From: Promethearchaeota archaeon
GTDB taxonomy: Archaea > Asgardarchaeota > Lokiarchaeia > Sigyniarchaeales > SOKP01
DNA: 64,000 nt
NCBI GenBank assembly: GCA_016840085.1
Contig: JAEOTA010000018.1
Span: 96,001 to 160,000 of the forward strand
Direction: 5' to 3'
The translations under genes and the position numbers were made by a program. This document shows, piece after piece, positions 10,457-38,239 of the stretch. Within the stretch, counting starts at the first letter, position 1, and each line of letters opens with the position of its first letter. The notes under the pieces were generated by a model, which worked only from the letters and a program-made list of their open reading frames with translations, had not been told where the DNA came from and ran no database searches.

Positions 10457-12421
10457 TCACGAATTCCAAAAAGGATTTAGATTCTTAAATATAGCATCAG
10501 GTCTATCAGGGATTATTTCCAATTCTTTTCTTATCCACTCTGATATCCATTTATATTTTGTTTTAAATCTACTGTCCATAAAAATTATTGCTCCTTTATC
10601 AGCAATTTTTCTTATTGGTCTTCCGGAAGCTTGATTTGCTCGTTGAATAGCTGGATATAAATATGCAAAATTCCAGCCTTGTCTATTAAATACCTTGTCG
10701 TAATATTTTATTTTTGCCTCAACTCGAGGAGTTGGTAGATGATACGGGAAACCTGCTATTATAACAGAATTCATAAAATTCCCCGGATAGTCTTCTCCTT
10801 CTGAATTTCTCCCACCACAAACTCCTAATAAGACTGCACCTCCATTTGAAGCCATGTTTTTGAAGTCATCCACTAATAAAGCATTTTCAGAGGCTGACAA
10901 ACCAGATTCCTCAAAAAATAATTTTTTATTATTTTTTTCTATTACAAATTCTATCCCATTCCTTATGAGTCCTCTAAGAATTTGATAAGAAGCACAAAAA
11001 ATTCCAATATTTGCAGGAGTTGTACATATCACTTCATTAATTTTATCAATCATTTTTTTAAACATGATTGGTGTTCTATTAACTCTTTTAGTATTTACTC
11101 CTTCAGTTATAATAGCCTTAATATTTTTCTTACTAAATGGGGAATCTGCGATTATTCCTTTATAACTCTTTCCACAATCATTTAATCCCATTAAATTATT
11201 ATAAACATATGGATTAACAGTTCCAGAGAGATTTAAAGAGGTATAACCTCTTTTCAAGATGGGAATAACAATTTCTCTAGGATCCAATGCTACAATTTCA
11301 AGTGAGATTGATTTTCTTCCTTTAACTTCTTTAACATTATAACAGAAAAAATAGTTATCTAAGGAATATGTGTTCAACCATTTCAACCAAAATTCTGCCA
11401 AGTAACCAACAAAATCTCTTGAAATTTCACCATTTGCTAGTTTTTCCTCATGTATTGAAAGGCCAAAATCATTAAAATCTTCAATAAAATTCTTAAATCT
11501 GTTTAGATCATTAAAACCTAATTTTTTATAAATTATTTCTAAAAACTTATCAGGTTTAATTGCCTTTTCTTCAATTCTTAGATCTTCTTTTTGCGTGTTT
11601 AATTGATCTATTAATATTTTAGCAAAACTCTGCATTAGAATAGGAGATCTATACATTTCTAGATCTTTCAAACATAACCTTAATGAATATGGTGTAATTT
11701 TTTTTGAACTTACTTCTGTAGCAACGTCTATTACATTATGACATTCATCTATTACTAAAATACAACTTTGAAGTTCTTTACCAATAAATTCTAAAAAAGA
11801 TTCACGAATAAATGGATTAAAAATCCATTGATAATTGCATATAATAACTTTCATTTTCTCAAGTAAGAACTTACTTAAAAAATAAGGACAAAATTTTTTT
11901 TCCTTACAGAACATTATGAGTTCTTCGGCATCTATAGGTTTATTAAACAATTCTGGTGCAATTAATAAGGGATTTTCAGTTTGTCCTTTTTTTTTTAATA
12001 AGTTGATAAAATGTCTGCAACTCCTATTTTTCCGTAAATCGCTACAAACTGACATTGCTTCTCTTGGATTTAACTTAAGAGATAATAAAGTTTCATTTAG
12101 GCACATCTCATTTCTACCTCTTATCGAAAGCCCATTAATCTTAACTCCAAGATGGGCATCGTTTATTTTTTGTGAGATCTTTATCAATTCTTTGATTATC
12201 CGCCGATTTTGAGAATGTGTTCTGCACATATAAATAATTTTAAGATCTTTTTCAAAAGCTAAAGGTAGAAGTCCACAGAGAGCAATTATTGTCTTTCCTG
12301 TTCCATTAGGGGCTGATAATAAAGTGATCTTTTTTGATCTTGAACTCAATTCGATCTGCTTAGTAATATTCTCTTGATTTTCTCTGAATTGCTTGTATGG
12401 AAAAAAAGATAAATAATCTAT
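10457..12421 (-). CDS. xpd: XPD/Rad3-type Fe-S DNA helicase; start extended to ATA at 12421
   Basis: APNGTGKT, RTHSQ, Fe-S Cys (EMC, VC, SC, CPY), DECHN, SGT, SEGEDY, QASGRPIR. The Q-motif FPYKQFRENQ is in frame upstream of the track start at 12349. Confidence 0.9.
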   Translation of the reverse strand: MDYLSFFPYKQFRENQENITKQIELSSRSKKITLLSAPNGTGKTIIALCGLLPLAFEKDLKIIYMCRTHSQNRRIIKELIKISQKINDAHLGVKINGLSIRGRNEMCLNETLLSLKLNPREAMSVCSDLRKNRSCRHFINLLKKKGQTENPLLIAPELFNKPIDAEELIMFCKEKKFCPYFLSKFLLEKMKVIICNYQWIFNPFIRESFLEFIGKELQSCILVIDECHNVIDVATEVSSKKITPYSLRLCLKDLEMYRSPILMQSFAKILIDQLNTQKEDLRIEEKAIKPDKFLEIIYKKLGFNDLNRFKNFIEDFNDFGLSIHEEKLANGEISRDFVGYLAEFWLKWLNTYSLDNYFFCYNVKEVKGRKSISLEIVALDPREIVIPILKRGYTSLNLSGTVNPYVYNNLMGLNDCGKSYKGIIADSPFSKKNIKAIITEGVNTKRVNRTPIMFKKMIDKINEVICTTPANIGIFCASYQILRGLIRNGIEFVIEKNNKKLFFEESGLSASENALLVDDFKNMASNGGAVLLGVCGGRNSEGEDYPGNFMNSVIIAGFPYHLPTPRVEAKIKYYDKVFNRQGWNFAYLYPAIQRANQASGRPIRKIADKGAIIFMDSRFKTKYKWISEWIRKELEIIPDRPDAIFKNLNPFWNS

Positions 12422-12519
12422 CCTAGTACACCAAATTCTAATATATAAAATTGATACGATTTTAACCCTTATATTACCATAGACTATAAAAATTTATTTA
12501 TTAAGAATAGGCAGTAAAG

Positions 12520-13956
12520 TTAATCATGTAATACAGGTTTTCTCGCAGCAAGAACAGCATCTAAACGTTTAACAGGCATGCGATAGGGGGCATTTTTTAA
12601 AAGTTCTGGATTATCTTTTGCTTCTTCTTTAATTTTATTCATTATTTCAACAAAAGAATCTAGAGATTTTTTTGATTCAGTTTCAGTAGGCTCTATCATT
12701 AAAGCACCTTGAACTATTAATGGAAAATAAATGGTTGGTGCGTATATTCCATAATCTAAAATACGTTTAGCAATATCTTCTGTAGTGATATCATTTGCCA
12801 TATCTCTATCTGAAAGTATAAATTCATGTTTACAGATTCTGTTGTATGGAAGATTATAATTCTGCTGTAATAAAACTCTTAAATAATTTGCATTTAAAAC
12901 CGCAATCTGACCAACTTTTTTCAGTCCGTCAGCGCCTAGTGCTAAAATATATGCATAAGCTCTTATAATTACTCCGAAATTGCCCCAAAATGCTTTAATT
13001 CTTCCAATTGATTTGTCATTGCTTTCTCGACATATTATCCCGTCCTTAGTTGAGATTAAAAAGGGTTCAGGAAGAAAATCAATTAATTCATTTACAACGC
13101 CAATAGGTCCAGATCCTGGTCCACCCCCACCATGTGGTGTAGAAAAAGTCTTATGTAGATTTAGATGAACAATATCAAATCCCATATCCTTAGGACGGCA
13201 TATTCCTAACATTGGATTTAGGTTTGCTCCATCATAATAACATAATCCACCATTATCATGTACAATTCGTGTGATCTCCTTTATTTGTCTATCAAAAACT
13301 CCTAAAGTATTAGGATTAGTAAGCATAATTCCAGCAACATCGCCTTCTAGCATAGCAAATTCCAATTGATCCAATGGAACCTCTCCATTTTCATCTGACT
13401 TTAATTCTATAATCGAGAATCCTGCCATTTTTGCAGAAGCAGGATTAGTGCCATGTGCAGAATCGGGAATTATTATTTTTCCTTTTTTGAGGTTTTTATT
13501 CTCAAAATACTTTTTTATAATTAATAATCCGACTAATTCTCCATGAGCTCCCGCTGCTGGTTGTAAAGTGAACCCTTCCATCCCAGTTATTTCTTCTAAT
13601 GATTCTGATAATCTATGCATAATTTCCAGAGCACCATGATTTTTTTCTTGTAATGGATGAATTTGGGAAAATTCTGGCAAACGGGCAATAATTTCATTAA
13701 TTTTTGGATTATATTTCATAGTGCAGGATCCTAAGGGATAAATTCCTGTATCAACACCATAATTTTTTTGGCTTAAGTTGATGAAATGACGAACTATCTC
13801 TACTTCTGGAACATTAGGAATGGAAATGTCTTTCCTTTGAAGCGTTTTAGGAATAATTTCGTCCAGATTAATGGTCCTAATATCCATAGCTGGTATAAAA
13901 TTGCATAGTTCATTCTCATTTCCTTTTTCAAAAATTGACGTTGGTTTTGAGTTTAT
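12520..13956 (-). CDS. gcvPB: Glycine dehydrogenase (decarboxylating) subunit 2; start probably ATA at 13956
   Basis: YPLGSCTMKYNP, QPAAGAHGE, SAHGTNPASA, PLP motif HLNLHKTFSTPHGGGGPG. The conserved IFEK motif is in frame upstream of the track ATG at 13887. Confidence 0.95.
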   Translation of the reverse strand: MNSKPTSIFEKGNENELCNFIPAMDIRTINLDEIIPKTLQRKDISIPNVPEVEIVRHFINLSQKNYGVDTGIYPLGSCTMKYNPKINEIIARLPEFSQIHPLQEKNHGALEIMHRLSESLEEITGMEGFTLQPAAGAHGELVGLLIIKKYFENKNLKKGKIIIPDSAHGTNPASAKMAGFSIIELKSDENGEVPLDQLEFAMLEGDVAGIMLTNPNTLGVFDRQIKEITRIVHDNGGLCYYDGANLNPMLGICRPKDMGFDIVHLNLHKTFSTPHGGGGPGSGPIGVVNELIDFLPEPFLISTKDGIICRESNDKSIGRIKAFWGNFGVIIRAYAYILALGADGLKKVGQIAVLNANYLRVLLQQNYNLPYNRICKHEFILSDRDMANDITTEDIAKRILDYGIYAPTIYFPLIVQGALMIEPTETESKKSLDSFVEIMNKIKEEAKDNPELLKNAPYRMPVKRLDAVLAARKPVLHD

Positions 13957-15317
13957 ATTCTTTCACCATCCTCGTTATTTTTTAAAGCTATTTTAGCTGC
14001 CTTTATAAAATTATCTATAGATTTTTTTGAATTCATTTCAGTGACGCAAACTAATGCAGTACCTTTCATTTCGGGGTAAAATTTTGTAATTTTCAGAGGT
14101 GGAAGTAAATTCATCTTATAGCAATGCTCAATGAAAGCATCTAAATTAGGACATTGGATTAAAAATTCATTGTACGTTGGTTTAACATTTAAAATTTTAT
14201 AACCTGGAACTTTACTAAGCTCTCTTTTTACGTAATTGGATTTTTGAATATTCTGAATCGCAACTTTCCGAAGACCAGTTCTACCTAAAGCTAAAAGGTA
14301 CGTCAGTGCTGCTAACGAGCATAATGCTTGGTTAGTACAGATATTCGAAGATGCTTTCTCTCGTCGAATATGTTGTTCACGTGCTTGTAATGTTAAAAGA
14401 AATCCTTCTTTTTCACCGTTAATTTCTTTAGTCTTTCCTATCAATCTTCCGGGAATTTTTCTCAAAAATTTCTGTTTTGTAGCAAAAATTCCTAAACCAG
14501 GCCCACCGAAAGATGGATTTATTCCAAAAGATTGCCCTTCTGCTACAAAAATATCTATATTTGTTTCTCCTGGAGGTTTCAAAATTCCTAGACATGTAGG
14601 ATCAGTCATGACTTGAATTAATAAACAGTTAGGGAACTTTTGCTTTACATCCTTTGCTAACTGTGAAATATCATTAATATCTCCGAAAAAATTAGGATTT
14701 TGAAATAGTACTGCTGCATCATCATTATCTAATTTATTTAATAGATTATCTTCTGTTGCTGATTTTATTAAAATATTTTGACCCCAACAATATGTTTTTA
14801 CAACCTCTAAATATTCTGGGTGAATTCCTTCAAGCATCATTATAGATTTTTTGTTAGTAATGATTGTAGCCATAATTGCAGCTTCTGCAAGAGCCGTGGA
14901 TCCATCATACATACTTGCATTGGCTACATCCATTTGAGTAAGTCGTGAAATAATTGTTTGATATTCATAAATAGCTTGTAAATATCCCTGACTTGCTTCA
15001 GCTTGATATGGTGTATAAGATGTATAAAATTCCGATCTAGAAATAACAAAATCTACTAATGAAGGAATATAATGATAATAACATCCTGCTCCTAAAAAAG
15101 CACTTGAATATAATTTATTTTTATTTGCTATTTCTTCTAATTTTCGTAAAAGATCTGGTTCTGAAAGAGATGAAGGTAAATCTAACTTTTCCAAATGCAA
15201 ATCTTTTGGAATGTCGTGAAATAAATCATCTAATTTACTAACACCTATTATTTTTAACATTTCTTTTACACTTAAATCATCATGAGGTACAAAATCCATC
15301 CAAGACACCTCAAACAT
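13953..15317 (-). CDS. gcvPA: Glycine dehydrogenase (decarboxylating) subunit 1 (start possibly ATG 15299)
   Basis: FLGAGCY, EFYTSYTPYQAEASQG, NASMYDG, LQAREQHIRREKASSNICTNQAL. Confidence 0.95.
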   Translation of the reverse strand: MFEVSWMDFVPHDDLSVKEMLKIIGVSKLDDLFHDIPKDLHLEKLDLPSSLSEPDLLRKLEEIANKNKLYSSAFLGAGCYYHYIPSLVDFVISRSEFYTSYTPYQAEASQGYLQAIYEYQTIISRLTQMDVANASMYDGSTALAEAAIMATIITNKKSIMMLEGIHPEYLEVVKTYCWGQNILIKSATEDNLLNKLDNDDAAVLFQNPNFFGDINDISQLAKDVKQKFPNCLLIQVMTDPTCLGILKPPGETNIDIFVAEGQSFGINPSFGGPGLGIFATKQKFLRKIPGRLIGKTKEINGEKEGFLLTLQAREQHIRREKASSNICTNQALCSLAALTYLLALGRTGLRKVAIQNIQKSNYVKRELSKVPGYKILNVKPTYNEFLIQCPNLDAFIEHCYKMNLLPPLKITKFYPEMKGTALVCVTEMNSKKSIDNFIKAAKIALKNNEDGERI

Positions 15318-15359
15318 AAAAATTATGAGTAGTTAATTTAAAAAAGAAGAAAAAAAACA

Positions 15360-15764
15360 TTAATGATCCTCTTGTTCGATCAATTCTTTATATTGTTCGA
15401 GTGACAGAAGATCTCCTATTTCATCATTATGATTAACTTTTATTTTTATTATCCAACCATCTTCATATGGAGATTTATTTATTAATTCTGGGTTATTGGT
15501 AAGGTTTTCATTGGTTTCAATAATTTCTCCTGACAGTGGCATTAAAACATCACCTACAGCTTTTACAGACTCAATTTCTGCAGTGTTACTGCCCTTTTCA
15601 AATACCATACCAACATCAGGGAGCTCAATGAAAACAATATCTCCTAGTTGATGTTGTGCATAGTCAGTAATCCCTACTGTACCAATATTATCTTTGATTT
15701 TTATCCATTCGTGAGTAGAGGTATAATTTATATCATTAGGTAATTTGTAATCCATAATTTTCAC
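15360..15764 (-). CDS. gcvH: Glycine cleavage system H protein
   Basis: HEWI, VGITDYAQHQLGDIVF, lipoyl-Lys IESVKA, PELIN.SPY..GWI. Confidence 0.95.
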   Translation of the reverse strand: MKIMDYKLPNDINYTSTHEWIKIKDNIGTVGITDYAQHQLGDIVFIELPDVGMVFEKGSNTAEIESVKAVGDVLMPLSGEIIETNENLTNNPELINKSPYEDGWIIKIKVNHNDEIGDLLSLEQYKELIEQEDH

Positions 15765-15793
15765 TTATTTTCTAAAACTTTAATTATTTGTCC

Positions 15794-16891
15794 TTACACA
15801 TTTCTATAAAAAGGCGTTTGTACGATGATTCCTCTTAAAAGTTTGTTTCTAATTTCAATTTCCAATTCTGTACCAACTTCCTTATATTGAGTTTTTATTA
15901 GACCTAAACCAATAGTCTTCTCTAGAGTTGGTGAATAACCACCAGAAGTTACATACCCAATTTCATTTTCATCTTTAAAAATTTTATAGTTTTCTCTTAT
16001 AATACCCTTATCTATTAAGTTTAGTCCAACTAATGTTCTTTCTGTTCCTTCTGATTTCTGTTTCATTAATACTTCTTTACCAAGATAATCTATTGCTTCT
16101 TTTGGTTTGGCTAACCAATTAAGCCCAGCTTCAATAGGAGTAATTGAATCACTAATCTCATGACCATATAATGAATAACATGCCTCTAATCTCAAGGAGT
16201 CTCTTGCACCTAATCCAGCAGGAGTTGCACCTATTTCTATTAAAATGTTCCAGATTTTCACAGCATATTTATTCTCAAGTGAAAGTTCAAACCCACGTTC
16301 CCCTGTGTATCCTGTTCTTGTAATAAAAATAGGTATGTTATTTAACTTACAATGTGCAAAATAGAATCTATTTATCTTTGCTAAATCAACATCTACTAAT
16401 GGTTGTAAGAGAGTATCGCTTTCTGGACCCTGAAAGGCTAACCTAGATCGTTCATTTGAAAGGTTTGATATCTTTACATCTTGATTCTTAATATGTTTAT
16501 TTAACCATTGCTGATCCTTTTCAATATTAACAGCATTCACAATCATTCTAAAAAAGTCTTCATTTTCCTCATAGTAAACTAAGTCATCAACAACTGTACC
16601 ATTCTCATAGCACATACAAGAATATTGCCCTTTTGATTTCTCTAATAAATTCAAATCATTTATCATTATATATTGAAGAAAAGGGATAATATCTCTACCT
16701 TTTAGAATAAATTCTCCCATATGTGAGATATCAAACACTCCAGCTTTAGATCTAACTGCGTTATGCTCCTTTATGATACTCTCGTATTGTACTGGCATAA
16801 AAAAGTTAGCAAACTCAACCATTCTTGCGCCAAGTTTTATATGTTCCTCATAAAGTGGAGTTTTTTTCAATATCTTGTGTTCTTCATTCAT
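15794..16891 (-). CDS. gcvT: Glycine cleavage system aminomethyltransferase T
   Basis: KTPLY, FDISHMGE, RTGYTGERGFE, GLGARDSLRLEA, VTSGGYSPTL. Confidence 0.95.
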   Translation of the reverse strand: MNEEHKILKKTPLYEEHIKLGARMVEFANFFMPVQYESIIKEHNAVRSKAGVFDISHMGEFILKGRDIIPFLQYIMINDLNLLEKSKGQYSCMCYENGTVVDDLVYYEENEDFFRMIVNAVNIEKDQQWLNKHIKNQDVKISNLSNERSRLAFQGPESDTLLQPLVDVDLAKINRFYFAHCKLNNIPIFITRTGYTGERGFELSLENKYAVKIWNILIEIGATPAGLGARDSLRLEACYSLYGHEISDSITPIEAGLNWLAKPKEAIDYLGKEVLMKQKSEGTERTLVGLNLIDKGIIRENYKIFKDENEIGYVTSGGYSPTLEKTIGLGLIKTQYKEVGTELEIEIRNKLLRGIIVQTPFYRNV

Positions 16892-17056
16892 TTTTACTAC
16901 ACTCTTTTAATAGCATTAATGTGTAAATCATTAATATAAATTAATGATTAAATTAAATTTTTAGGGTTAAATGTAATCCTTTATTTAAGATTAATACTGA
17001 AAAATCAATATCAATAATCATAAAAGTTTAATTATTAAGCTTATTTTTATAAAAAA

Positions 17057-17962
17057 ATGAATGATGATAAAAATAATAAGAATTATTTCTTATCTTTTAT
17101 AGATATAATAAATGAGAGCTTAATAAGAGACTTCATTTTATTCAGCTTCCTTTTTGTATTAGTATTAACTCAAGTATGGGACAATATTTTTTTATTGTTA
17201 TTTCCTTTAATTACATTTTCATTTTCATTATTTTTTAGAGTAATTAACACAAATAAATGGAGAACTGAATTTGATAATAGTCCTATTATTTACAATCCTT
17301 TAGGATTAGAAAAAAAACATGCGAATCGATTATTTTTTTCAGCTTTAATCCAATTGCTCTTAATATTTTGGATGGGGAGTGAGTCTTTATATCATCCACA
17401 TTTGATTACAGAATATATTCCGTACTTTACGATTTTATTTATTTTCTCATATACTTTTGGATTTTTTTGGATTTTTCTTGATTTTTGGAAATATTCTAAA
17501 ATAGAGATAACTACCAGATCAAATGATCTAAAATCTTCTCAAGAGAGTGAGAAAGCTTTTTCTCATGATTTAAGCAAAGTCATATCTTTCTTAAAAATGA
17601 AAGAGTTTATAATAATTTCTATTGTTAATTTTTCGGTATTTGTTGTTTTAAATCTTATAAATTTGATATCTATGATACTTATACAAAATAATTTCCCTTT
17701 GAGATTAGAGCTTAATTTACCAGGAACAAGAAGCCAAGGGTCAAATCCAATAACCTTACCATTAAGTTTCTACGGTTTCCTTATTATTTCACCTGTATTA
17801 ACAATTATTTTTCTAATTTTTAATTATAGATTTATTAACAATATTAATATAGAAAAACTACATGAGATTCTTGAGTCCTTACCAAGAACCATTCAAATAA
17901 AAGTAATTGAAAACCTTAAAACATTGAATAACAAAATAGAAGAAGATTTGAAAATTGAATAA
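17057..17962 (+). CDS. Hypothetical polytopic membrane protein
   Basis: 301-aa ORF with about 6 hydrophobic segments; no recognised family. Confidence 0.7.
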   Translation: MNDDKNNKNYFLSFIDIINESLIRDFILFSFLFVLVLTQVWDNIFLLLFPLITFSFSLFFRVINTNKWRTEFDNSPIIYNPLGLEKKHANRLFFSALIQLLLIFWMGSESLYHPHLITEYIPYFTILFIFSYTFGFFWIFLDFWKYSKIEITTRSNDLKSSQESEKAFSHDLSKVISFLKMKEFIIISIVNFSVFVVLNLINLISMILIQNNFPLRLELNLPGTRSQGSNPITLPLSFYGFLIISPVLTIIFLIFNYRFINNINIEKLHEILESLPRTIQIKVIENLKTLNNKIEEDLKIE

Positions 17963-18020
17963 AATTTAATTAAATCAAGTTTAATATTAATAATAATAGT
18001 GTTTAGATTAAATTTGGATC

Positions 18021-18557
18021 TTGATTATGGCTCAGCAAAAGCTATTATTCAAAGTCGTCGTTGTAGGTGATGGCGGAATTGGTAAAAGCACTATGGTTCA
18101 GAGATTGACAACGGGTCAATTCATTCCGCAAAAGATTACAATAGGAACAGATCTAGCGGTAGAAGAGATCCAAGTTAATGAGAGGATTACAGTGCGACTT
18201 CAAATATGGGATTTTGCAGGAGAACGACGGTTTAGACTCTTTTTACCTAATTATTCAAGAGGTGCTACTGGTTGTTTATTATGTTATGATATAACCCGGC
18301 GAAGTAGCTTTGATAACTTGATTGAATGGTATGATATTGTAAGTAATAATGCTGATAATCCCGTAATTATTTTAGTTGGAGAAAAACTTGATTTAGTAGA
18401 TGTTAGAAGGAGTGTTGACTATGAACAAGCCGAAGAGTTTAAAGAAAAATATAATTTAGATTATTTTTTTGAAACATCTTCCAAGAGTGGTGAAAATAAT
18501 AATGCAGTTTTTACAACATTAACAAGCTCTATTTTGAAAAAACGGGGATATATATAA
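18021..18557 (+). CDS. Rab-like small GTPase (Ras superfamily)
   Basis: G1 GDGGIGKS, G2 TIG, G3 WDFAGE, G4 GEKLD, G5 ETSSK; no C-terminal Cys for prenylation. Confidence 0.9.
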   Translation: MIMAQQKLLFKVVVVGDGGIGKSTMVQRLTTGQFIPQKITIGTDLAVEEIQVNERITVRLQIWDFAGERRFRLFLPNYSRGATGCLLCYDITRRSSFDNLIEWYDIVSNNADNPVIILVGEKLDLVDVRRSVDYEQAEEFKEKYNLDYFFETSSKSGENNNAVFTTLTSSILKKRGYI

Positions 18558-18649
18558 TGATTTAAATTTAGTTGTGACGAAAATCAACTAAGATTTAATT
18601 AAAATAAATATAAAAAAAATATTAGTAAAAATAGTATTTATTATTTCTA

Positions 18650-19594: not shown

Positions 19595-19627
19595 TTAATT
19601 ATAACACATACTTCATTATTTCTGTTT

Positions 19628-19643
19628 GTGTGAAACTTCACAC
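19628..19643. promoter_or_regulatory. Palindrome GTGTGAA-AC-TTCACAC, candidate operator, nested in a larger inverted repeat (19615-19658)
   Basis: Perfect 7-bp arms plus outer arms ATTATTTCT/AGAAATAAT; lies between the divergent frhB-like and rhaA genes. Confidence 0.45.
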
Positions 19644-19765
19644 TATAATAGAAATAATAGAACACAAAATATAAAGTTTAAACTTTCCTTTTAACAGACT
19701 AAAAATATAAGATAATTGCTTTTTTCATTATATTCAAAAAAATCAAATAAATTATATAGTTAAAA

Positions 19766-21031: not shown

Positions 21032-21041
21032 TTATAAGAGA

Positions 21042-21332: not shown

Positions 21333-21416
21333 CTTAATTAGATATTAATAAGTATTCAAATAATTAAATTCCTTGTATTATTAAAAGTAATATAAAAAAA
21401 GTGTTATTAAAGAAGT

Positions 21417-25110: not shown

Positions 25111-25189
25111 CTGTTTTTCTTATCTATATTATTTTTAGAAGTTTGTTATTTAATAAATTAAATATAAATTAAACTTTAAAGTTTTAAAT

Positions 25190-26230: not shown

Positions 26231-26379
26231 ACTCTTGAATTTAATTAATAATGTAAATAAATTAATTTATTTTATAATATTATTACTGATTTAAATACCT
26301 AATAATTATGAAATTAAATATTTCATAATAGTTTTATATTTAATGAAATAGAATTAATTCAAATCCAATTATTCTTATA

Positions 26380-27153: not shown

Positions 27154-27171
27154 TAAATCGCAAAACAAAAA

Positions 27172-28912: not shown

Positions 28913-29089
28913 ATGGACCCAGTAGAAGAAAAAATGATAATTATAGATATTTTGAAAAAGCGAAGATTATCTTATTCGATTGAAATTTTAGATGTGCAAG
29001 GAGATAGATATACTGTTCGTAATAATTTTGGATCAACTATAGTATATATAAAGAAAAATAACGATTATTTCTTAGAATCAGAATTTTAA
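28913..29089 (+). CDS. Small hypothetical protein (58 aa), not in ORF track
   Basis: ATG 28913 to TAA 29089: MDPVEEKMIIIDILKKRRLSYSIEILDVQGDRYTVRNNFGSTIVYIKKNNDYFLESEF; protein-like helix plus beta-strand pattern. Confidence 0.6.
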   Translation: MDPVEEKMIIIDILKKRRLSYSIEILDVQGDRYTVRNNFGSTIVYIKKNNDYFLESEF

Positions 29090-29288
29090 TGAAAAATTAC
29101 TAATTTTTCAGTGTTTTAATAGATATATTAAACGAAATAGAAAAAGAAATTAATTCTTTTAAGATTTTATTTTTTCAAACTAATATAATAAAGGTATTAA
29201 TATTTATTATTAGATAAGAATTTAAGATAAAAATATTATAAATAAATTAACTAATAGTAAAATTATAAAAATAATTAGTTGATTTAAT

Positions 29289-30422
29289 ATTCGACGTAGA
29301 AGAGTAGGTTCAGAAAATACTGAAAGTAAGTTCATTGAAAAGTTTAGAGCAGTTATTGATGACCATACATCTCTTTCGATATATAATAAAAAAAAAAGAT
29401 CTGTTTGTGTTATTCGAAAAGATTTAGCCAAATCTTATGAAATTGAAGTAGATGCTTCTGAAGCTCCTGTGTTGAATAAAATATTAAGTGATCCAGAACC
29501 ATATGAGATTTCTATTGCTGATTTGAAAATCTTAGAGGAAGAAATATTCCCTATAAATGAAGCTTTACAGAAAGTGTTTGGATCAGAAAAAGACCTGAAA
29601 TTAAATGCGATAAAATTAGCTATTGGGAGTACTTATACAGATTATGTTACCATTGGAGAGAATGATTTAATTAGATTCGATGTTAAGCCTACCCTTAATG
29701 GGTTAAATGAATTTATTAAAGAAAATAAAGAGAGTATTTTAGGATTTTTAGATTGTGAGTATATTAGCGAAGAGGGTAATGTTATATATTTGAATTGTAG
29801 CAAAAAAAATGTGTCTGAAAATATCTACTCAATAAAGTTATTAATTCTGGCATCTATGCAACAAAGAGGATTTTTCCTTCAACAAGAGCATAAATATTAT
29901 GGGCTCCAACTCTATATTATAATTGAATCTAGAAAGCCTAATGAAAATAAATTGTTGGAATTTTTAAAAGAACTTAATATTGATTGGGAAGTTATATTTT
30001 TCAGAAGAAAACTAGCGATCCATGATTGGACAGAGATAGAGTGTGAAAGAAATAGTGAAAATCTAAAAAGTTTTCTCCGTGGAAAATATGATACATTAAA
30101 TTATTTTGACGTAAACAATATAATTCGTCTAATAGTGAAGAACCAATTACCTTTTAAAGTAGCTGATAAAATGGCATCTCTTTTATATAAAATGAAAAGT
30201 GAAAGAGCAAGTCGCTTTCATGATAGAAAATATAATGAAATCGCTTATCAGGATGATCAGTTACAACAAGATGAATATTCAGTAACACTAAAAAAAGCAG
30301 AAGTTGCCGCAGCTGCTAAACTCGCATGTGCTTATTTAGGAATACATAATAAAATTAATTTTGATAGAGATATTTCTATAGATGAAATTCTAAAATATCA
30401 AGAAGAATTATCAAATATCTAG
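29289..30422 (+). CDS. Hypothetical protein; reading frame open from 29283, upstream of the track GTG start at 29469
   Basis: In-frame extension IRRRRVGSENTESKFIEKFRAVIDDHTSLSIYNKKKRSVCVIRKDLAKSYEIEVDASEAP; start codon uncertain (ATT 29289 or GTG 29469). Confidence 0.6.
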   Translation: MRRRRVGSENTESKFIEKFRAVIDDHTSLSIYNKKKRSVCVIRKDLAKSYEIEVDASEAPVLNKILSDPEPYEISIADLKILEEEIFPINEALQKVFGSEKDLKLNAIKLAIGSTYTDYVTIGENDLIRFDVKPTLNGLNEFIKENKESILGFLDCEYISEEGNVIYLNCSKKNVSENIYSIKLLILASMQQRGFFLQQEHKYYGLQLYIIIESRKPNENKLLEFLKELNIDWEVIFFRRKLAIHDWTEIECERNSENLKSFLRGKYDTLNYFDVNNIIRLIVKNQLPFKVADKMASLLYKMKSERASRFHDRKYNEIAYQDDQLQQDEYSVTLKKAEVAAAAKLACAYLGIHNKINFDRDISIDEILKYQEELSNI

Positions 30423-30490
30423 ATATTTCTATTATATTAATATAAAAAAATAAATTTATAAAAAATATCCCAATTTTAATCTTGTTTTTT

Positions 30491-31486
30491 TTAAATTAAT
30501 CCATAGGATTGTTTTAATAATTCATGATTTGCATTCCCTACTGTTATACTTTTACCTGTCTTAATATTTGTGATCGTATAGATTGCTGGTGCAAATAATC
30601 CTGGATCAATATCATAGAAATTATAATCTGCTGCTTTAAATGTGTCAATGAAAGGTTTTCCATAACTAGAAGAAGTGTTTGCTGGTGCCTTATTAACGAT
30701 TTCAAATAATTCTGCTTCTTTTTCTTTCTCGACATTTATTGTATAATAAGTTATTCCCCCAGCAATTATTGAGTCATTAGTACGTCCCATAGCACCAAGA
30801 TCATCTTTAGCAATTGGTGCAATAGTAGTTGTTCCAAAACCATCATGGATTACTTCAATTGGAAAATTGATTTCATGTAATTTATGAATACCTGTTTCAA
30901 CAATTCTTGCAGCTACTTGGATTGATCCTATAAGACAGGCAGTTGGAGCACAAATTGCGTATGTATTCTTCACTTCTATTCCACATTTATTTGCTACAAT
31001 TTCCATAACTTCTTCATTCGGTAATCTTGGAGTCTCAAAAACGATGATTGCACAATCGGAATTATCTGTATAATTAATTTCTTCAAATAATTTTTCAACT
31101 TTACTTTTAGCTCGAGCTGGTCCTGAACCCAGTGATTGAAAAATAACTTTCTTCTTTTTTACTCCCTCTTTTTCTACTTCTTTTTTTAATTTAATATTCC
31201 AACCAGCTAATTGAGAAGCCATGCAAGCAATTATGGGATCTGAAGTATAAACATTAACACTTGGTATAATTTGTCCATCTAAGTCGTAATATGAAAAATC
31301 TACGGTACCTAAACCCCCCATACAAATTTCTCCAACTAATTTACCTCCTAACCAAGAAGAATTTGACATGTCTAGAATTATGGCATCATTATCTAATTTG
31401 TGAATTTCAGCCTTATAGATTTCGTTATGATCTATTATTTTATCAACGATATTCCTTGCAAGTTCATTTATTTTTATATGATGCAC
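30491..31486 (-). CDS. mch: Methenyl-H4MPT cyclohydrolase
   Basis: EICMGGLG, ACMASQLAGW, GSGPARA, GSIQVAARIVETG.HKL, AMGRTND, FYDIDPGLFAPA. Confidence 0.95.
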   Translation of the reverse strand: MHHIKINELARNIVDKIIDHNEIYKAEIHKLDNDAIILDMSNSSWLGGKLVGEICMGGLGTVDFSYYDLDGQIIPSVNVYTSDPIIACMASQLAGWNIKLKKEVEKEGVKKKKVIFQSLGSGPARAKSKVEKLFEEINYTDNSDCAIIVFETPRLPNEEVMEIVANKCGIEVKNTYAICAPTACLIGSIQVAARIVETGIHKLHEINFPIEVIHDGFGTTTIAPIAKDDLGAMGRTNDSIIAGGITYYTINVEKEKEAELFEIVNKAPANTSSSYGKPFIDTFKAADYNFYDIDPGLFAPAIYTITNIKTGKSITVGNANHELLKQSYGLI

Positions 31487-31599
31487 TTATTTTCACCTTA
31501 TTAAAATTTCTTTTTTTAATTGAGTATTTAATATTAATTTGATATATAATTATAATATATTTTTAATTTTGAATATATGATAATCAAACTCTCTATAAT

Positions 31600-33126
31600 A
31601 TGAAAAACGCCGAAGAAAAATTAAGTAAGCTAAATAAAGATCTTGCGAAAGCTAAAACTTTTTTCTTAGATAATATAAAAGATATAGATTCTCCAATTCA
31701 TATTTATACTCATTTAGATGCTGATGGTTTAAGTTCAGGAGCTATCCTTGGAAAAGCTCTGTATCGAGAAAGATTACCATTTCAAATTACTGTGCTTAGA
31801 CAATTAGAAAAAAGCGAAATTCAGAGTCTTTCTAATAAAATTAAAGATAATAATGGTTTTCTTTTCTTTTGCGACCTTGGAAGTGGGCAATATTTAGAAT
31901 TACAAAAAAACTTAATAATTAATAAAAAATTCACTTCCTTTTTAATTCTGGACCATCATCTTCCTCAAGATATATCTAATAAAGAAGAAATTGATTCAAT
32001 TAACGAAATTCATAGAAATACAAGTCCTTGGCATATTAATCCCTATTTTTTTGATATAGATGGAAGTAAAGAGATTTCCGCAGCAGGATTATGTTATTAT
32101 TTTTCAAAATGCTTAAATAGCCAAAATTTAGATCTTTCTCCTATAGCTATTGTAGGAGCAATTGGAGATATTCAAAATCAATATACAAATAAATCTTTTC
32201 AAGGTTTGAATTCCTTAATATTAGAAGATGCGAAAAATTCAGGATTAATAGAAGTTGTTAATGACTTGAATTTTTCTGCCTTAAGACCTATAAATGAAGC
32301 TATTGCTTATTCTAATGAAATTAAATTGCCAGGATTGACTAATAATGCCGCTAAAACTTTAGTATTCTTAAAAACATTAGGAATATTAATTGAGAATACA
32401 GAAGGAAGTGTAAAAACTTTAAACGAATTAAATCAAGATGAAAAACAAAAGATTTCCTCAGCAATAATTGAATATGCATCATTAAAACTTGATCTAGAAC
32501 CAAGTAATATAATTAACAAATTAATAATCAATAGATATATCTTAAGAGAGGAAATAACTCATTCTGAACTTCATGATGCTAGAGAATTTTCTTATCTCCT
32601 TAATGCGTGTGGTAGAACTTATAATGCATCATTAGGTATTGCGATTGCCATGGGAGATAGAAAAAAAATTTATAAGCAATCAAAGGAGGTCAGACAAAAC
32701 TATAGAAAACTTTTACATGAAAGTCTTTTTTGGATTGAAAATAAAGAAAAAATCCAGCAAAAAGAATATATCCAATACTTTTTTGGGGAAAACGTAATTC
32801 CTGAAAATATAATAGGAACAATAACATCGATATTGATTTTTCAGAATATTCAAGGGATCGATAAGTCTAAACCAATATTTGGTTTAGCAAAAAGAAAAGA
32901 TGAGAATGTCTATAAAGTATCAGGAAGAGCGCACGAAAAAATTGTAAAAAAAGGAGTAAATCTTTCAGAAGCAATAAGAGAAGCTTGTATACATTTAAAT
33001 TTAGATGTATTAGGAGGGGGACATCCTCCTGCGGCGGGAACAAAAATTCCTGTAGATACAGTTGAAAGTTTTCTTGAAAATTGTAATTTGGCTATTCAAA
33101 ATCAATTAAAGCACATAAAAAGTTAG
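31600..33126 (+). CDS. RecJ/Cdc45-like DHH phosphoesterase
   Basis: HLDADG, DLGS, LDHH, INP, GAIGD, LLNACGR, KVSGR, GGGHPPAAG. Confidence 0.9.
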   Translation: MKNAEEKLSKLNKDLAKAKTFFLDNIKDIDSPIHIYTHLDADGLSSGAILGKALYRERLPFQITVLRQLEKSEIQSLSNKIKDNNGFLFFCDLGSGQYLELQKNLIINKKFTSFLILDHHLPQDISNKEEIDSINEIHRNTSPWHINPYFFDIDGSKEISAAGLCYYFSKCLNSQNLDLSPIAIVGAIGDIQNQYTNKSFQGLNSLILEDAKNSGLIEVVNDLNFSALRPINEAIAYSNEIKLPGLTNNAAKTLVFLKTLGILIENTEGSVKTLNELNQDEKQKISSAIIEYASLKLDLEPSNIINKLIINRYILREEITHSELHDAREFSYLLNACGRTYNASLGIAIAMGDRKKIYKQSKEVRQNYRKLLHESLFWIENKEKIQQKEYIQYFFGENVIPENIIGTITSILIFQNIQGIDKSKPIFGLAKRKDENVYKVSGRAHEKIVKKGVNLSEAIREACIHLNLDVLGGGHPPAAGTKIPVDTVESFLENCNLAIQNQLKHIKS

Positions 33127-33136
33127 ATTAATAGTA

Positions 33137-34441
33137 TTAAATTTGATATACTTCTCCTATTTCAGGAGCTATTGAATTATATCCCTTTTTAGTTAACTCG
33201 CTTGCTAATTTAGTTGTTGATTTATTGTCACCATGAATACAAAATACATTATTATTGGAATGCTCTTGAAAATTCAAATTTGCTATATAATCATGAATAT
33301 GCACATTGTCAGAATGGCTTGAAAAATCAAAATAATCATAATCACACGTTGCTTTTATCCTTAATTCATTTGAAATATGCCTTTTTCTTCCTGAATCTTT
33401 GAATTCAAAAATTCCATTATCTATTAGGCCTCTCCCCGGAGTTCCTTCTACTTGATATCCTACTAAATAGATTGCAGAGGTAGGATCTTGTAAAATAGTC
33501 TCAATATACTCAATTGCAGCACCCCCCTTAAGCATACCTGAAGGTGCAATTATGACACCTTCAGATTTTTTTACAATTGATCTTGTTTTTGGTCTGGTCA
33601 CAAAGTGGGCTTTTTTTAAAGCTTTTCTAAACGATATTATGTTTCTGATGAAATCTGGATAATCTAAGTAAATCCTAGACATTTTTCTTGCTAAGCCATC
33701 AATGAATATTTTACCCCTATAGTTATATTTTTCTAATATTAATAAGACTTCTTGAGAGCGTGCAACTCCAAAAGCAGGAATTAAGACTTTCCCACCATTA
33801 TTAGTAATATGATTAATTCTTTCTACTAAATCCTTCTCTAGTTGCTGTCTTGGTGGGTGTTCTCTAAGAGCATATGTTGATTCTATTATTAACGTATCCA
33901 ATTTCGGAACATCTTGAGAATTTGCTGGATTGATTAAATTTGTTGTAAGCGTATTAATATCTCCTGAATATAAAACAATTTTATTGTCAACCTCGATTAA
34001 AATAGATACACTTCCAGGAATATGACCCGCATCAATAAATGTAATATAAAAATTATCATCAATTTTTTGACGTGTTCCATTTTTAAGAAAATATGTATTT
34101 TGTTTTAATAGATCTAATTCTCTAAATCCAAAGGGATAAGGGTATTTTGAAATTCTTATCATATCTTTTATAAGAACTTCAGTTGTAGCAAGAGAAACGG
34201 GATTAGTAAAGAAAGGAATCTTTGTAGTTTTATATAATAGAGGTAAAGCACCTGAATGATCAATATGGCTATGAGTTAATGCTATTGCTTTTAGGTTATT
34301 TATATCAGTTTTATAGGGTAATCTATCATCGCTATTGAATCCTATTCCGTAATCCAAAATACATTGTGTTCCATTTTTTGACTCTACTAGAATTCCAGAA
34401 CGACCTATTTCTCTACAGCTTCCTAAAAATGTGATTTTCAT
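33137..34441 (-). CDS. MBL-fold beta-CASP ribonuclease (no KH domains)
   Basis: FLGSCREIGRS, THSHIDHSG, AGHIPGS, YSGD, ESTY, SGMLKGG, FSSHSD, IHGD. Confidence 0.9.
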   Translation of the reverse strand: MKITFLGSCREIGRSGILVESKNGTQCILDYGIGFNSDDRLPYKTDINNLKAIALTHSHIDHSGALPLLYKTTKIPFFTNPVSLATTEVLIKDMIRISKYPYPFGFRELDLLKQNTYFLKNGTRQKIDDNFYITFIDAGHIPGSVSILIEVDNKIVLYSGDINTLTTNLINPANSQDVPKLDTLIIESTYALREHPPRQQLEKDLVERINHITNNGGKVLIPAFGVARSQEVLLILEKYNYRGKIFIDGLARKMSRIYLDYPDFIRNIISFRKALKKAHFVTRPKTRSIVKKSEGVIIAPSGMLKGGAAIEYIETILQDPTSAIYLVGYQVEGTPGRGLIDNGIFEFKDSGRKRHISNELRIKATCDYDYFDFSSHSDNVHIHDYIANLNFQEHSNNNVFCIHGDNKSTTKLASELTKKGYNSIAPEIGEVYQI

Positions 34442-34605
34442 TAGTAATGAAAAGATTTTTAAAAATTTCTAAAAATTTATTATTTCTAAAAAAGAATATC
34501 AGTTTTTTTAAAATTTCTATTTAGACTAAAAAATGTATTAATTCTTTTTGTACTTTTTTTTTATAGAGCCAAATAAAAAAAAGAAGCTACGAAGAAATAG
34601 AAAGA

Positions 34606-35367
34606 TTATTTTAATTTTTTTATCGTATTAGTCAATAAAGCAATAACATTATCAACATTTTTAGCAAAGATTTCTAAGATTTCTTCCCAAGTAACAGGAG
34701 CTTCATCAGCTTTCCAGCAATCATAATCCGTAGACATAGCTACAGCAGCATATGGGATGCTTGCTTCATTTGCTAAAATTGTTTCAGGAGCTATGCTCAT
34801 ATTTATCACATCAGCACCCCATATCCTAAACATCTCTGATTCTGCCCTTGTTGAAAATCTTGGTCCTTCAATAGTGACTACCGTTCCTTTTTCATGGAAT
34901 TTAAGATTAAGTTCTTTCGCTGTTTCAATAAGGATATTTCTTATCTCTTCTGAATAAGGATCAGCCATGGGTGTATGTTTCATATCACCTGGAGCAAATT
35001 CTTCAAAAAAAGATATTTTCCTAAGTCGGGTGAAGTCTATAAATTGGTCAAGAATAACGAGATCACCTCTGTCTATTTTTTCTCTCAAGCTACCACAAGC
35101 TGTAGTTGCAAGGATATGAGAACACCCTTGATCTTTTAATGCTTGTATGTTAGCCCTATAATTTATTTGCGTGGGAGGAATTTTATGCTCTCTTCCATGT
35201 CTAGCAATAAGAACTACATCAACATCATGAATTTTCCCTAATTTTAAAGGAGAAGACGGTTTTCCATATGATGTATTAACATCGATATCTTTTGCATCCT
35301 TTAAAATTTCCGGATTGTCTAATCCCGAACCGCCAATTATTCCTATTTTTACCATAATATTCAACAT
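34606..35367 (-). CDS. mtnP: S-methyl-5'-thioadenosine phosphorylase
   Basis: KIGIIGGSG, ARHG, NYRANI.AL, EGPRFSTRAES, VINMS..PE, MSTDYDCW. Confidence 0.95.
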   Translation of the reverse strand: MLNIMVKIGIIGGSGLDNPEILKDAKDIDVNTSYGKPSSPLKLGKIHDVDVVLIARHGREHKIPPTQINYRANIQALKDQGCSHILATTACGSLREKIDRGDLVILDQFIDFTRLRKISFFEEFAPGDMKHTPMADPYSEEIRNILIETAKELNLKFHEKGTVVTIEGPRFSTRAESEMFRIWGADVINMSIAPETILANEASIPYAAVAMSTDYDCWKADEAPVTWEEILEIFAKNVDNVIALLTNTIKKLK

Positions 35368-35506
35368 ATAGTTTTTTTAAATTATAAAATTTTAAATTTT
35401 ATAAATTATTTGTTAAAAAACTTACCCACTGCTGCCAAATTCTATAAAGTTTTAACATAATATTGATTAGTGTAAAATATATTTCTAAAATTTATTTTTA
35501 TAATTA

Positions 35507-36505
35507 ATGCTAAAAAACAAAGTTCTTGTTCTTGGGTCATTGGCTTTTGATTATATAATGGGTTTTAAAGAGAGTTTTATTAAAGCGGTATCTATAAATC
35601 AAGATAAAGGGGAATATCAAAGTACTGTTACTGCAGATAGTCGTCATCAATTTTTTGGGGGAACAGCCGGTAATATTGCTTACAACTTAGGGCTTTTGAA
35701 TATTGCGAAAGTATCTTTATTTGGTTCAGTAGGCGATGATTTCGAGAGATTAGGATATAAGGATCATATAAACCAATTTTCAAATATAGAATTACTAGTT
35801 GATATATATGATGATCTTTTCACTGCAGCTTGTTATATAGTTAATGATATTAAATCTAATCAAATGATCATTTTTCATGGAGGTGCTTTAGACAAGTGTA
35901 AGGAAATTAATTTAATAAAAAAAGTTCCAAATCCGGAAGAGTTTATTTATGCAATAAATTCAACACAAAGTGTCGAAGCTATGACTAATTTTGCTATTCA
36001 ATTAGATGATTTGAAAATACCCTCTATATTTGATCCTGGTCAAGTAACTCCACTTTTCCAGAAAGAACGTTTAATAGATATAATCAAAAAATCAGAAATT
36101 TTAATCGGCAATAGCCATGAGATAATGCAAATAAAAGAGAAATCTGAGTTAACTGAAGAGAAGATTCTTGAATATGTCAGAGCAATTATAATAACACGAG
36201 GATCTGGAGGCTCTGAATTGATTTATAAAGATGAAAACAAAAAAATCTTTAAATATAATATCCCTATTGCTACTCCTGCGAAGGTTTTGGATACAACTGG
36301 GGCGGGAGATGGTTATCGTGCGGGAATACTAACGGGCTTAATGTTAAATATGACTATATTAGATTCTTGTCGATTAGGTGCAATAATTAGTTCATTTGTA
36401 GTTGAAACTAGTGGAGCTCAGACGCATCTTTTTGATATAAAACAAGTAAGGAAGAGATTTTTCAACACGTTTGGCTACTTCCCTCCTGAAATAGAAAGGA
36501 TATAA
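35507..36505 (+). CDS. PfkB-family nucleoside (adenosine) kinase
   Basis: GSLAFDYIM, GGTAGNIAY, FDPGQ, DTTGAGDGYRAG; lies between mtnP and apt. Confidence 0.85.
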   Translation: MLKNKVLVLGSLAFDYIMGFKESFIKAVSINQDKGEYQSTVTADSRHQFFGGTAGNIAYNLGLLNIAKVSLFGSVGDDFERLGYKDHINQFSNIELLVDIYDDLFTAACYIVNDIKSNQMIIFHGGALDKCKEINLIKKVPNPEEFIYAINSTQSVEAMTNFAIQLDDLKIPSIFDPGQVTPLFQKERLIDIIKKSEILIGNSHEIMQIKEKSELTEEKILEYVRAIIITRGSGGSELIYKDENKKIFKYNIPIATPAKVLDTTGAGDGYRAGILTGLMLNMTILDSCRLGAIISSFVVETSGAQTHLFDIKQVRKRFFNTFGYFPPEIERI

Positions 36506-36554
36506 AAAAATAATATTCTTAAATTAAAATTTTTATTTAAACAAAACGTATATA

Positions 36555-37088
36555 TCATTCTACTATGGGGATTTCTAATAATGAGAGAACATCATATCCT
36601 TTTAATTTATCTCTACCATGTAAACTTCCAGTAAGTTCAATAACAAAAGCTACACCTATAACATCTCCATTAACTTTTTCTACTAAGTGGCATGCCGCTT
36701 TAGCAGTTCCCCCAGTTGCTAATAAATCATCAAAAACTAAGACTTTATCACCTTTTATAATGGCATCTTTATGCATTTCAATAGAATCAGTACCATATTC
36801 AAGATCGTAAGTTACACTAATTGTCTCGGCAGGTAATTTTCCAGGTTTTCTCATTAATACAAAACCAGCACCCAAATGATAAGCAATAACGCCTCCCCAT
36901 ACATATCCACGGGCTTCGATTGCTGCTACTTTAGTAATACCTTTACCTTTGTAATGATTTATGATTCTATCACACGATTCTTTAAAAGGTTCATAAGCTT
37001 TACATAAAGTGGTAATATCCTTAAATTGTATTCCTGGTTTGGGCCAATCTGGTACATTTCTTATATATTTCAGAAGTGGATCTTCCAT
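36555..37088 (-). CDS. apt: Adenine phosphoribosyltransferase
   Basis: PDWPKPGIQFKDITTL, IEARG, RKPGKLP, YDLEYG, VFDDLLATGGT. Confidence 0.95.
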   Translation of the reverse strand: MEDPLLKYIRNVPDWPKPGIQFKDITTLCKAYEPFKESCDRIINHYKGKGITKVAAIEARGYVWGGVIAYHLGAGFVLMRKPGKLPAETISVTYDLEYGTDSIEMHKDAIIKGDKVLVFDDLLATGGTAKAACHLVEKVNGDVIGVAFVIELTGSLHGRDKLKGYDVLSLLEIPIVE

Positions 37089-37282
37089 ATTTTTATCAAA
37101 TCCATTTATACTTCATTATTTTTTAAAATTTTTTAATTAAAAATTATATTTAATTATATTTAATCGTCATAGGAATAGATTACTAAAAAACTAAATTCTC
37201 TTTTTAATAATTAGAAAAAATTAAATAAAGATAAAATTATAAAATTTATATAAAAGCAATTAAAATCAACGGTGAAATAAAA

Positions 37283-38239
37283 ATTAAGGTACTTCTCTTC
37301 GGACCTGCTGGGGCGGGTAAAACATCACTTATGAGAACTACTTGCTTAGGATATAATTTCATGAAAGTTTTAAATCTAAAACCAACAAAAGGAGTTTCAA
37401 GAGAAAATTTCATATTTAGAGGGATTTTAGAATTATCGATATGGGATCTTGGAGGTCAAGAACGGTATTTAGAACGTTATTTCTCTGAATCACGACGCGA
37501 ATTAATATTTTCAGAAGTTGCTACTGCTGTTTTTATGGTTGATTCTGCTTCTGTGAACCCAGAAGTACGAGATGTTTTTGATAATTTTTTGAATTTTTTG
37601 TTTGAATTTTCTCCTAAAATAGATCAAGTTTATGTGTTATTAAATAAAGTAGATTTACAAGAGTCAAAAGAAGATGATTTTTACCAAATTCTAACGAAAG
37701 ATTCAAGTGGAGAATTGATGGAAAAAATTTCCTTTACTCCTGTGTCAGTAAAAGAGGGAAGTGCTCAGCATAGACTAATTGAAATTTTAGATTATGAGAT
37801 CCAAAAAAATACTCTTTCAATGCAACGCTTAGGGAAAATTAGGCATTTATTAGATGAATTGAAAGTAAATACAATATCAGAATATCTTTTATTTAATCAA
37901 CCTGATGGGTTATTAATTTCATCTACTTTTGGAAAGTTTGATTCTAAACCGCTTCAATTTATGAAATTTGAGATTGGGACTTTAGATTCAAATATTTATA
38001 GTATTTATCAGCAAATTATGGAACTCCAAAACGTATCCGACCTTTCACCATTATCTTTGTCAACTGTTGTTTATGAATCTGAAAATTGTTGGATTCTAGT
38101 AAAAGAAGTTAGTAATGGAGCTGTTTTAATGGTTGTTACACGAAGTAAAGATCCTGAAGTTTTCTCAAGTGTAATGAATGCATTAACTGGAGAAACGTTT
38201 GAAAATTTAAAATTTTATTTAAAATCTTCTGAGTTTTGA
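37283..38239 (+). CDS. RagA/Gtr1-like GTPase with C-terminal roadblock-like domain; start extended upstream (ATT 37283 or ATA 37277)
   Basis: The P-loop KVLLFGPAGAGKTS is in frame upstream of the track ATG at 37331; LKPTKG, WDLGGQERYLERYF, LNKVD; tail EYLLFNQPDGLLISS...ILVKEVSNGAVLMVV. Confidence 0.85.
   Translation: MKVLLFGPAGAGKTSLMRTTCLGYNFMKVLNLKPTKGVSRENFIFRGILELSIWDLGGQERYLERYFSESRRELIFSEVATAVFMVDSASVNPEVRDVFDNFLNFLFEFSPKIDQVYVLLNKVDLQESKEDDFYQILTKDSSGELMEKISFTPVSVKEGSAQHRLIEILDYEIQKNTLSMQRLGKIRHLLDELKVNTISEYLLFNQPDGLLISSTFGKFDSKPLQFMKFEIGTLDSNIYSIYQQIMELQNVSDLSPLSLSTVVYESENCWILVKEVSNGAVLMVVTRSKDPEVFSSVMNALTGETFENLKFYLKSSEF

Follow-up and report, generated by a model that had tools for sequence, protein, structure and literature searches.

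What starts translation in a gene whose conserved amino terminus lies in frame ahead of every ATG, GTG and TTG codon? The question is raised by a 64,000-nt stretch of DNA from a Promethearchaeota archaeon of the class Lokiarchaeia (positions 96,001 to 160,000 of contig JAEOTA010000018.1, assembly GCA_016840085.1), hereafter the window, in which xpd, gcvPB, a Rag-like GTPase gene and a further conserved gene at position 29289 appear to begin with ATA or ATT. The genome is a metagenome-assembled draft of 4.68 Mb (89 contigs; 29.5% G+C; 7.6% contamination), and the stretch was detected in marine-sediment metagenome runs. Its 16S rRNA has the 3' end GGATCACCTCCT, which corresponds to the Shine-Dalgarno (SD) consensus AGGAGGTGATCC. 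Throughout, ATH (AUH in RNA) stands for ATA, ATT or ATC, and ATG, GTG and TTG are referred to as canonical starts. Comparative and statistical evidence from the sequences (codon position and conservation, interchange among orthologues, dependence on the SD and enrichment) shows ATH codons to serve as starts. We consider it very probable that the four genes are intact and translated from AUA or AUU codons placed by a GGUG(A)-type SD and read by the ordinary initiator tRNA, and that this is a genome-wide habit.

ATA and ATT codons at four conserved gene starts

We read the frames directly, matched the proteins to family profiles and examined the aligned codon in 40 relatives of the same order, 24 of them in the same genus. 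The xpd frame is open from 12493, and its first canonical start is the TTG at 12349; the FFPYKQFRENQ motif and the beginning of the helicase domain are located upstream of that TTG. In profile searches the Rad3 model TIGR00604 scored 281.4 bits (cut-off 246.95), and the ResIII and DEAD matches began at residues 11-15 as counted from the ATA. Nearly all members of the genus had ATA at the aligned codon; a single genome had ATT and another ATG, the latter with GGTG changed to GCTG. Among the xpd loci of species-representative genomes (n = 43), ATA was found in 33 (GGTG in 31/33) and ATG in 8 (GGTG in 0/8). Over the 24-codon front segment, differences from the orthologues numbered 66/31/160 at codon positions 1/2/3. 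In some related lineages, xpd begins at a normal ATG and encodes ~75 additional N-terminal residues that include CxxC...CxxC zinc-ribbon motifs (PF02150 match on record), giving proteins of 727-741 aa; the xpd of the window lacks this fused form.

In gcvPB, the ATA codon and the stop of the preceding frame share the letters ATAA, the near-cognate counterpart of the usual ATGA overlap. We read that preceding frame (13953-15317) as a putative gcvPA; the match seen for the GcvPA model was a weaker one to the GcvPB protein. A start at the first canonical codon of gcvPB, the ATG at 13887, would cost 23 residues. From the ATA, the protein matched the GcvPB model NF003346 at 698.8 bits (cut-off 441), with profile positions 9-485 of 487 lying on residues 5-476. 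Orthologues had ATA, ATG, GTG or ATC at or adjoining the aligned codon.

The first ATG of the GTPase frame (37331) falls past the P-loop GPAGAGKT. The model PF04670 (Gtr1_RagA) scored 81.2 bits (cut-off 22), with positions 1-137 of 232 on residues 2-138; the C-terminal 180 residues, where a Gtr1/RagA protein would have a roadblock-type part, lie outside the match, and "Rag-like" is a fair name as judged by profile similarity. At the codon that is ATT here, relatives had ATG (most), TTG (4), GTG (1), ATA (3) or ATT (1), always directly ahead of K-x-L-L-F-G-P-A-G-A-G-K-T, and the majority of ATG-start orthologues had no SD. Differences in the 16-codon front segment were 197 synonymous versus 18 nonsynonymous, distributed 56/7/210 over the codon positions.

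The fourth gene encodes a 377-aa product that is conserved across the order and has an Arg-rich N terminus (IRRRR...KFIEKFRAV); no Pfam or NCBIfam family matched it. Its ATT lies three codons past an in-frame TGA and 60 codons ahead of the first canonical start, the GTG at 29469. Protein similarity begins at the ATT codon, which was retained in 25/25 genomes of the genus, the present one included. The (G)GTTGAT motif before it recurred, slightly varied, among the orthologues of the genus, and an SD-consensus word of at least 4 nt was present in 24/24. One relative had TTG 2 codons upstream, and in another family ATG was found two codons upstream. The skipped segment differed among orthologues by 182/68/614 at the three codon positions.

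An earlier note based on the window sequence had described, in xpd, gcvPB and the GTPase gene, a conserved N terminus preceding any canonical start and an Ile codon behind GGTG(A). Both descriptions hold: the frames can be read directly, the family profiles reach upstream, and the codons lie 7, 7 and 8 nt behind GGTG. Its possible fourth case, at 29289, was borne out by the conservation of the ATT, and the interchange of ATG, ATA and ATT that it proposed to look for among orthologues was found, with GTG and TTG also occurring at the same codon. Every long frame of the window was scanned without yielding a fifth case, which leaves a load of 4 ATH-start genes among roughly 50. Coordinates are collected in Table 1.

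Table 1. Positions of the genes and initiation signals discussed (window coordinates unless a contig is named)
Feature	Position	Strand	Remarks
xpd/rad3 helicase gene	10457..12421	-	654 codons + stop; TIGR00604, DEAD_2, HBB and Helicase_C_2 matches
xpd start codon ATA	12419..12421	-	7 nt behind GGTG; aligned-codon conservation
xpd SD core GGTG	12429..12432	-	complementary to 16S rRNA 3' end (GGATCACCTCCT)
gcvPB gene	12520..13956	-	478 codons + stop; NF003346 match
gcvPB start codon ATA	13954..13956	-	6 nt behind GGTGA; overlaps gcvPA stop TAA 13953-13955 (ATAA)
gcvPB SD GGTGA	13963..13967	-	inside gcvPA end; its TGA (13965-13963) closes the gcvPB frame upstream
Degenerate SD TGAT within GTTGAT (fourth gene)	29280..29283	+	contains the TGA that closes the frame upstream
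Conserved gene (fourth gene)	29289..30422	+	start ATT 29289; 377 codons + stop
GTPase SD GGTGA	37271..37275	+	7 nt ahead of ATT
Rag/Gtr-like small GTPase gene	37283..38239	+	start ATT 37283; 318 codons + stop; PF04670 match
uL16 (L10e) gene	C3:34198-34827		start ATC 7 nt behind GGTG
Initiator tRNA gene	C22:51652-51786	-	135 nt, at least one intron
Sole aIF1/SUI1 gene	C81:64201-64518		start ATT

Enrichment of ATH codons behind GGTG across the genome

The counts of codons at the expected distance from GGTG are given in Table 2. Only seven codons (ATG, ATT, ATA, TTG, GTG, ATC and CTG) were enriched at this distance, and the others were at background. ATH codons totaled 59 against ~11 expected, an excess of ~47 compared to a canonical excess of ~81. 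Behind GGTG, the spacing of ATG peaked at 5-10 nt and that of ATH at 7-8 nt; the four window sites lie at 7, 7, 8 and 7 nt. Genome-wide, neither permuted motifs nor composition-matched AT-rich control codons gave a spacing peak.

Table 2. Codons found 7 or 8 nt behind GGTG, counted where at least 100 in-frame codons are open and no canonical start lies upstream or within the next four codons; expected counts are taken from background spacings of 16-23
Codon	Observed	Expected
ATG	58	3.0
ATT	27	5.0
ATA	24	5.7
TTG	22	2.3
GTG	8	1.7
ATC	8	0.7
CTG	6	1.3
AAA	8	11.3
TTT	3	7.7
TTA	3	7.3
AAT	3	5.7

Broader estimates pointed the same way with less precision. When any 5-nt SD word at a spacing of 4-10 was admitted, 135 ATH frames were counted, roughly 70-90 above one clean control, along with 516 canonical SD-led frames; several of the initial control motifs for this broad search contained true SD words and only one was clean, and we prefer the GGTG spacing test. 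A crude SD-independent estimate from codon usage found at least 15 coding-like codons before the first canonical start in ~60 of 2,033 long genes (~3%), a rough figure in that 20-codon scores separate coding from noncoding sequence poorly (means of 2.8 versus -0.8; standard deviation of ~3). The majority of genes lack an SD and begin with ATG. The claim that this organism routinely initiates at AUA or AUU was sustained genome-wide and refined in extent: ATH codons make up about a third of the starts led by GGTG at 7/8 nt and about 1-3% of all genes, possibly more. ATC is also used as a start, and CTG probably is too.

We also scanned 37 further ATH candidates against Pfam. In 11 of them, a domain began 2-33 residues from the ATH codon and would be cut by the first canonical start, consistent with the suggestion that conserved sequence would be found beyond called starts elsewhere in the genome; at least this many more genes show it. 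The 11 encode uL16 (from ATC), FolE2, an ornithine cyclodeaminase (OCD), a metallo-beta-lactamase (MBL), ThiF/MoeB, a GFO/IDH/MocA oxidoreductase, two Ras-like GTPases, an HMA-type P-ATPase, an alpha/beta hydrolase and a short-chain dehydrogenase (SDR). In the uL16 gene, the first canonical start lies 109 codons downstream and would remove over half of the Pfam domain.

Proposed mode of initiation and alternative explanations

In the mode of initiation that we propose, a GGUG(A)-type SD would pair with the 3' end of 16S rRNA and thereby hold the AUH codon at the P site of the ribosome. There, the ordinary CAU initiator tRNA may pair with the first two bases of the codon, with the third-base mismatch tolerated, and the protein would most likely begin with Met. 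AUH starts depend on the SD; the ATG-start orthologues of xpd and the GTPase gene are mostly without one. Pooled over the orthologue sets, an SD-consensus word of at least 4 nt preceded 105/107 ATH starts versus 18/44 ATG starts, which is to be read as a pattern and not as a valid test. Such weak starts would probably give low or factor-sensitive rates of translation. One initiator tRNA gene was found in a crude search, with the anticodon CAT, the A1:U72 pair and a GGG/CCC anticodon stem. ARAGORN and Rfam together detected only ~20 tRNA genes in 4.7 Mb, and most tRNA genes of this genome are probably split by introns that the standard tools miss.

Several observations weigh against this reading. 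In vitro, the aIF1 of S. solfataricus rejects an AUU model mRNA (PMC4705826), so archaeal machinery would not be expected to accept AUH readily. Nor are the SDs of SD-led genes any longer before ATH than before ATG; the idea that a longer SD compensates for a weak codon within the genome was rejected (mean match of 5.61 versus 5.48; P = 0.21; genes led by GGTG at 7/8 nt). Ahead of the fourth gene stands only a degenerate SD, TGAT. The front segment of gcvPB is weakly conserved (44 synonymous versus 151 nonsynonymous differences; 76/104/139 by codon position), weaker in this respect than the other three genes. In xpd, further in-frame ATH codons lie upstream, so that it is the SD spacing and the orthologues that single out the ATA. 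Some more distant xpd orthologues have GGTG 6 nt before the ATA, which brings its GTG into frame; this GTG could itself be the start, and one sequence may serve as an SD in one lineage and as a start codon in another. Finally, the orthologue counts were drawn from related genomes, with overlapping xpd sets, and are not independent.

An upstream start reached by another route than AUH initiation is unlikely. Such a route might be a different noncanonical codon nearby, reinitiation by ribosomes that have terminated on the preceding gene, conversion of AUA to AUG by A-to-I editing, or a noninitiator tRNA inserting Ile. The ATAA overlap of gcvPB with the gcvPA stop suits termination-reinitiation, and the additional in-frame ATH codons upstream in xpd leave room for a different codon. 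However, the xpd ATA is located ~100 nt past the gcvPB stop, and the GTPase and fourth genes both follow long spacers next to opposite-strand genes. Genome-wide, 29/43 ATH starts were separated by >150 nt from the closest same-strand gene that ends upstream of them, indicating that translational coupling is not required. Editing fares no better, since ATT is the commonest of these codons and A-to-I editing cannot make AUG of it. The enrichment is moreover confined to a spacing of 7-8, as for ATG, and the crude pattern search, which covers few of the intron-rich tRNA genes of the genome, found no second initiator-like tRNA.

It is very improbable that the genes instead start at the first downstream ATG, TTG or GTG, as publicly called, with the upstream similarity an untranslated leftover. 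Prodigal-type calls do favor such starts: the public xpd of the present genome is a 630-aa protein beginning at TTG 12349, and many relatives are recorded at 590-623 aa. With such starts, however, the GTPase would lose its P-loop and GcvPB ~20 profile positions. The skipped segments of the GTPase and fourth genes diverge in the manner of coding sequence, as the counts given above indicate, and the first canonical position is unconserved, varying from 15 to 78 codons downstream among orthologues of the fourth gene. Relatives also carry ATG exactly at the ATH position. The expectation of the earlier note that gene callers would truncate the proteins was largely correct: most public calls are short (the xpd of 11 relatives by 24-64 aa), whereas four NCBI records of xpd orthologues begin exactly on the ATA, translated as M.

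That sequencing or assembly errors (single-base indels or substitutions) conceal canonical starts has a next to negligible probability: the genome is a contaminated metagenome-assembled draft and homopolymer runs lie near two sites, but the same arrangement recurs in dozens of independently assembled relatives, the nearby out-of-frame TTG and GTG codons run into stops within 1-3 codons (the sole such stretch at xpd reads TTG GTG TAC TAG), and random errors cannot yield an enrichment specific to codon and spacing across the genome. A check for indels on contigs, in place of the read mapping that the earlier note called for, came out clean. We compared Logan contigs, assembled separately from four runs, over 20 kb (all runs of one study, possibly the source of the assembly); at 12421, 13956 and 29289 the contigs, with a depth of 9-27, showed neither substitution nor indel nor gap, and those of three runs agreed on the xpd ATA, three on the gcvPB ATA and four on the ATT of the fourth gene. 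The sole indel listed in the 20 kb compared is at 25160. It belongs to a variant of the segment 24855-25198 that contigs of all four runs carry at depth 24-101, compared to ~10-27 locally, and that consists of ~16 substitutions and this 1-base deletion. The variant probably derives from a relative that is more abundant, or else from a second copy, with this conserved segment in common.

aIF1, known near-cognate starts and phylogenetic range

Archaea initiate translation with machinery of the eukaryotic type, whose fidelity factor aIF1 proofreads the choice of start codon. The sole aIF1 gene of the genome itself begins with ATT: no canonical start lies ahead of the zinc knuckle, and the ATT stood behind a conserved AAGGTTGTGATAAGAGAGT leader in 22/22 genomes of the genus. 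Elsewhere in the order, other genera had ATA, TTG, GTG or ATG as the start of aIF1; the proposition that aIF1 is never started from ATG in this order was rejected, as ATG occurs in one genus of family f2 and in both genomes of family f4. Alignment with the solved aIF1 of M. jannaschii begins at residue 5 (chain residue 3). Inspection of the aIF1 loops, which the earlier note had recommended, showed a basic loop 1 that looks ordinary and keeps its character (RRKWGR here versus KRRFGK in M. jannaschii). By analogy, the ATT start of the aIF1 gene fits a feedback like that of IF3 on infC without proving one. By the same analogy with bacterial infC/IF3 and eukaryotic eIF1 (PMC4705826; PMC6237735), aIF1 might feed back both on itself and on the ATH genes. 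We tentatively suggest, as a possibility that is less probable than its alternatives taken together, that the start-codon rule is relaxed in this Loki genus and that AUU feedback on aIF1 sets a cell-wide stringency permitting AUH, such that lineages with an AUH-started aIF1 would tolerate many AUH starts and those with a UUG- or AUG-started aIF1 would not.

The closest known parallels are E. coli infC, which encodes IF3, and pcnB, the only two confirmed cases of an AUU start; in the same species AUA, AUC, AUU and CUG rank next after the canonical starts (10.1101/063800). As in infC and pcnB, the codons proposed here are near-cognates with a third-base mismatch, used behind an SD, and they would likewise be read by the normal initiator tRNA with weak, factor-sensitive initiation. 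As with infC in E. coli (10.1101/063800; PMC4705826), the gene of a fidelity factor itself has a weak codon, here the ATT of aIF1. The differences lie in number, with two cases in E. coli versus roughly 50-90 SD-led cases here, and in the factor: aIF1 has the SUI1 fold and is unrelated to IF3, and its autoregulation is a proposal by analogy. The seven enriched codons coincide exactly with the initiators listed in NCBI translation table 11, and the four near-cognates among them are those that rank next in E. coli. There, these near-cognates have 0.02-3% of AUG activity and almost never occur in natural genes, whereas here such codons head conserved genes of a housekeeping kind, among them uL16, aIF1, xpd and gcvPB. 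Across 36 groups of prokaryotic genomes, AUG-to-AUU switches numbered 1 in 61,358 (PMC5622118). A passage of PMC6237735 citing Ivanov et al. (2010) states that eukaryotic eIF1 restrains its own production by way of a poor context for initiation. In this genus, the start of the homologous factor aIF1 is a weak AUU throughout; the weakness lies in the Kozak context around an AUG in eukaryotes and in a non-AUG codon behind an SD here.

For archaea, the reviews consulted give AUG, GUG and UUG as the only start codons (PMC7531240; PMC4705826). The present genome resembles this published picture in that SD-led and SD-less mRNAs coexist and GUG and UUG are used too; full-text literature searches on archaeal and Asgard non-AUG, AUA/AUU or alternative starts turned up no account of an archaeal AUH start. 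Given that the aIF1 of S. solfataricus rejects AUU in vitro, the frequency of ATH starts here is notable. The evidence supports a lineage-wide variant of a known initiation mode, one that matters in practice for gene models of Asgard archaea. These archaea are mostly studied via predicted proteomes, and if 1-3% or more of the genes of this lineage start in this way, many database proteins would be without their N termini (P-loops, Rossmann folds and half of uL16), and domain catalogues, structure predictions and phylogenies would be distorted. A lineage in which AUH is as common as AUG on SD-led mRNAs, that of aIF1 included, would also offer a natural system for start-codon stringency and its evolution.

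The comparison that such a system needs is built in, as a sampled sister-family genome is without the ATH habit. This genome (G032; complete, 31% G+C) had 23 ATG, 3 TTG, 3 GTG and 4 ATH codons 7 or 8 nt behind GGTG in the 1.2 Mb sampled, with no ATH spacing peak in that sample (Fisher P = 0.001 against the present genome). Besides giving the method a negative control, this sample is evidence of a high ATH frequency being lineage-specific. A second genome (G030; 0.8 Mb sampled) had 8 ATG and 5 ATH at a spacing of 7, counts too few to judge. The three genomes give a hint on the link to aIF1 when ATH and ATG counts are set beside its start codon: 59/58 in the present genome (ATT), 5/8 in G030 (ATA) and 4/23 in G032 (probably TTG).

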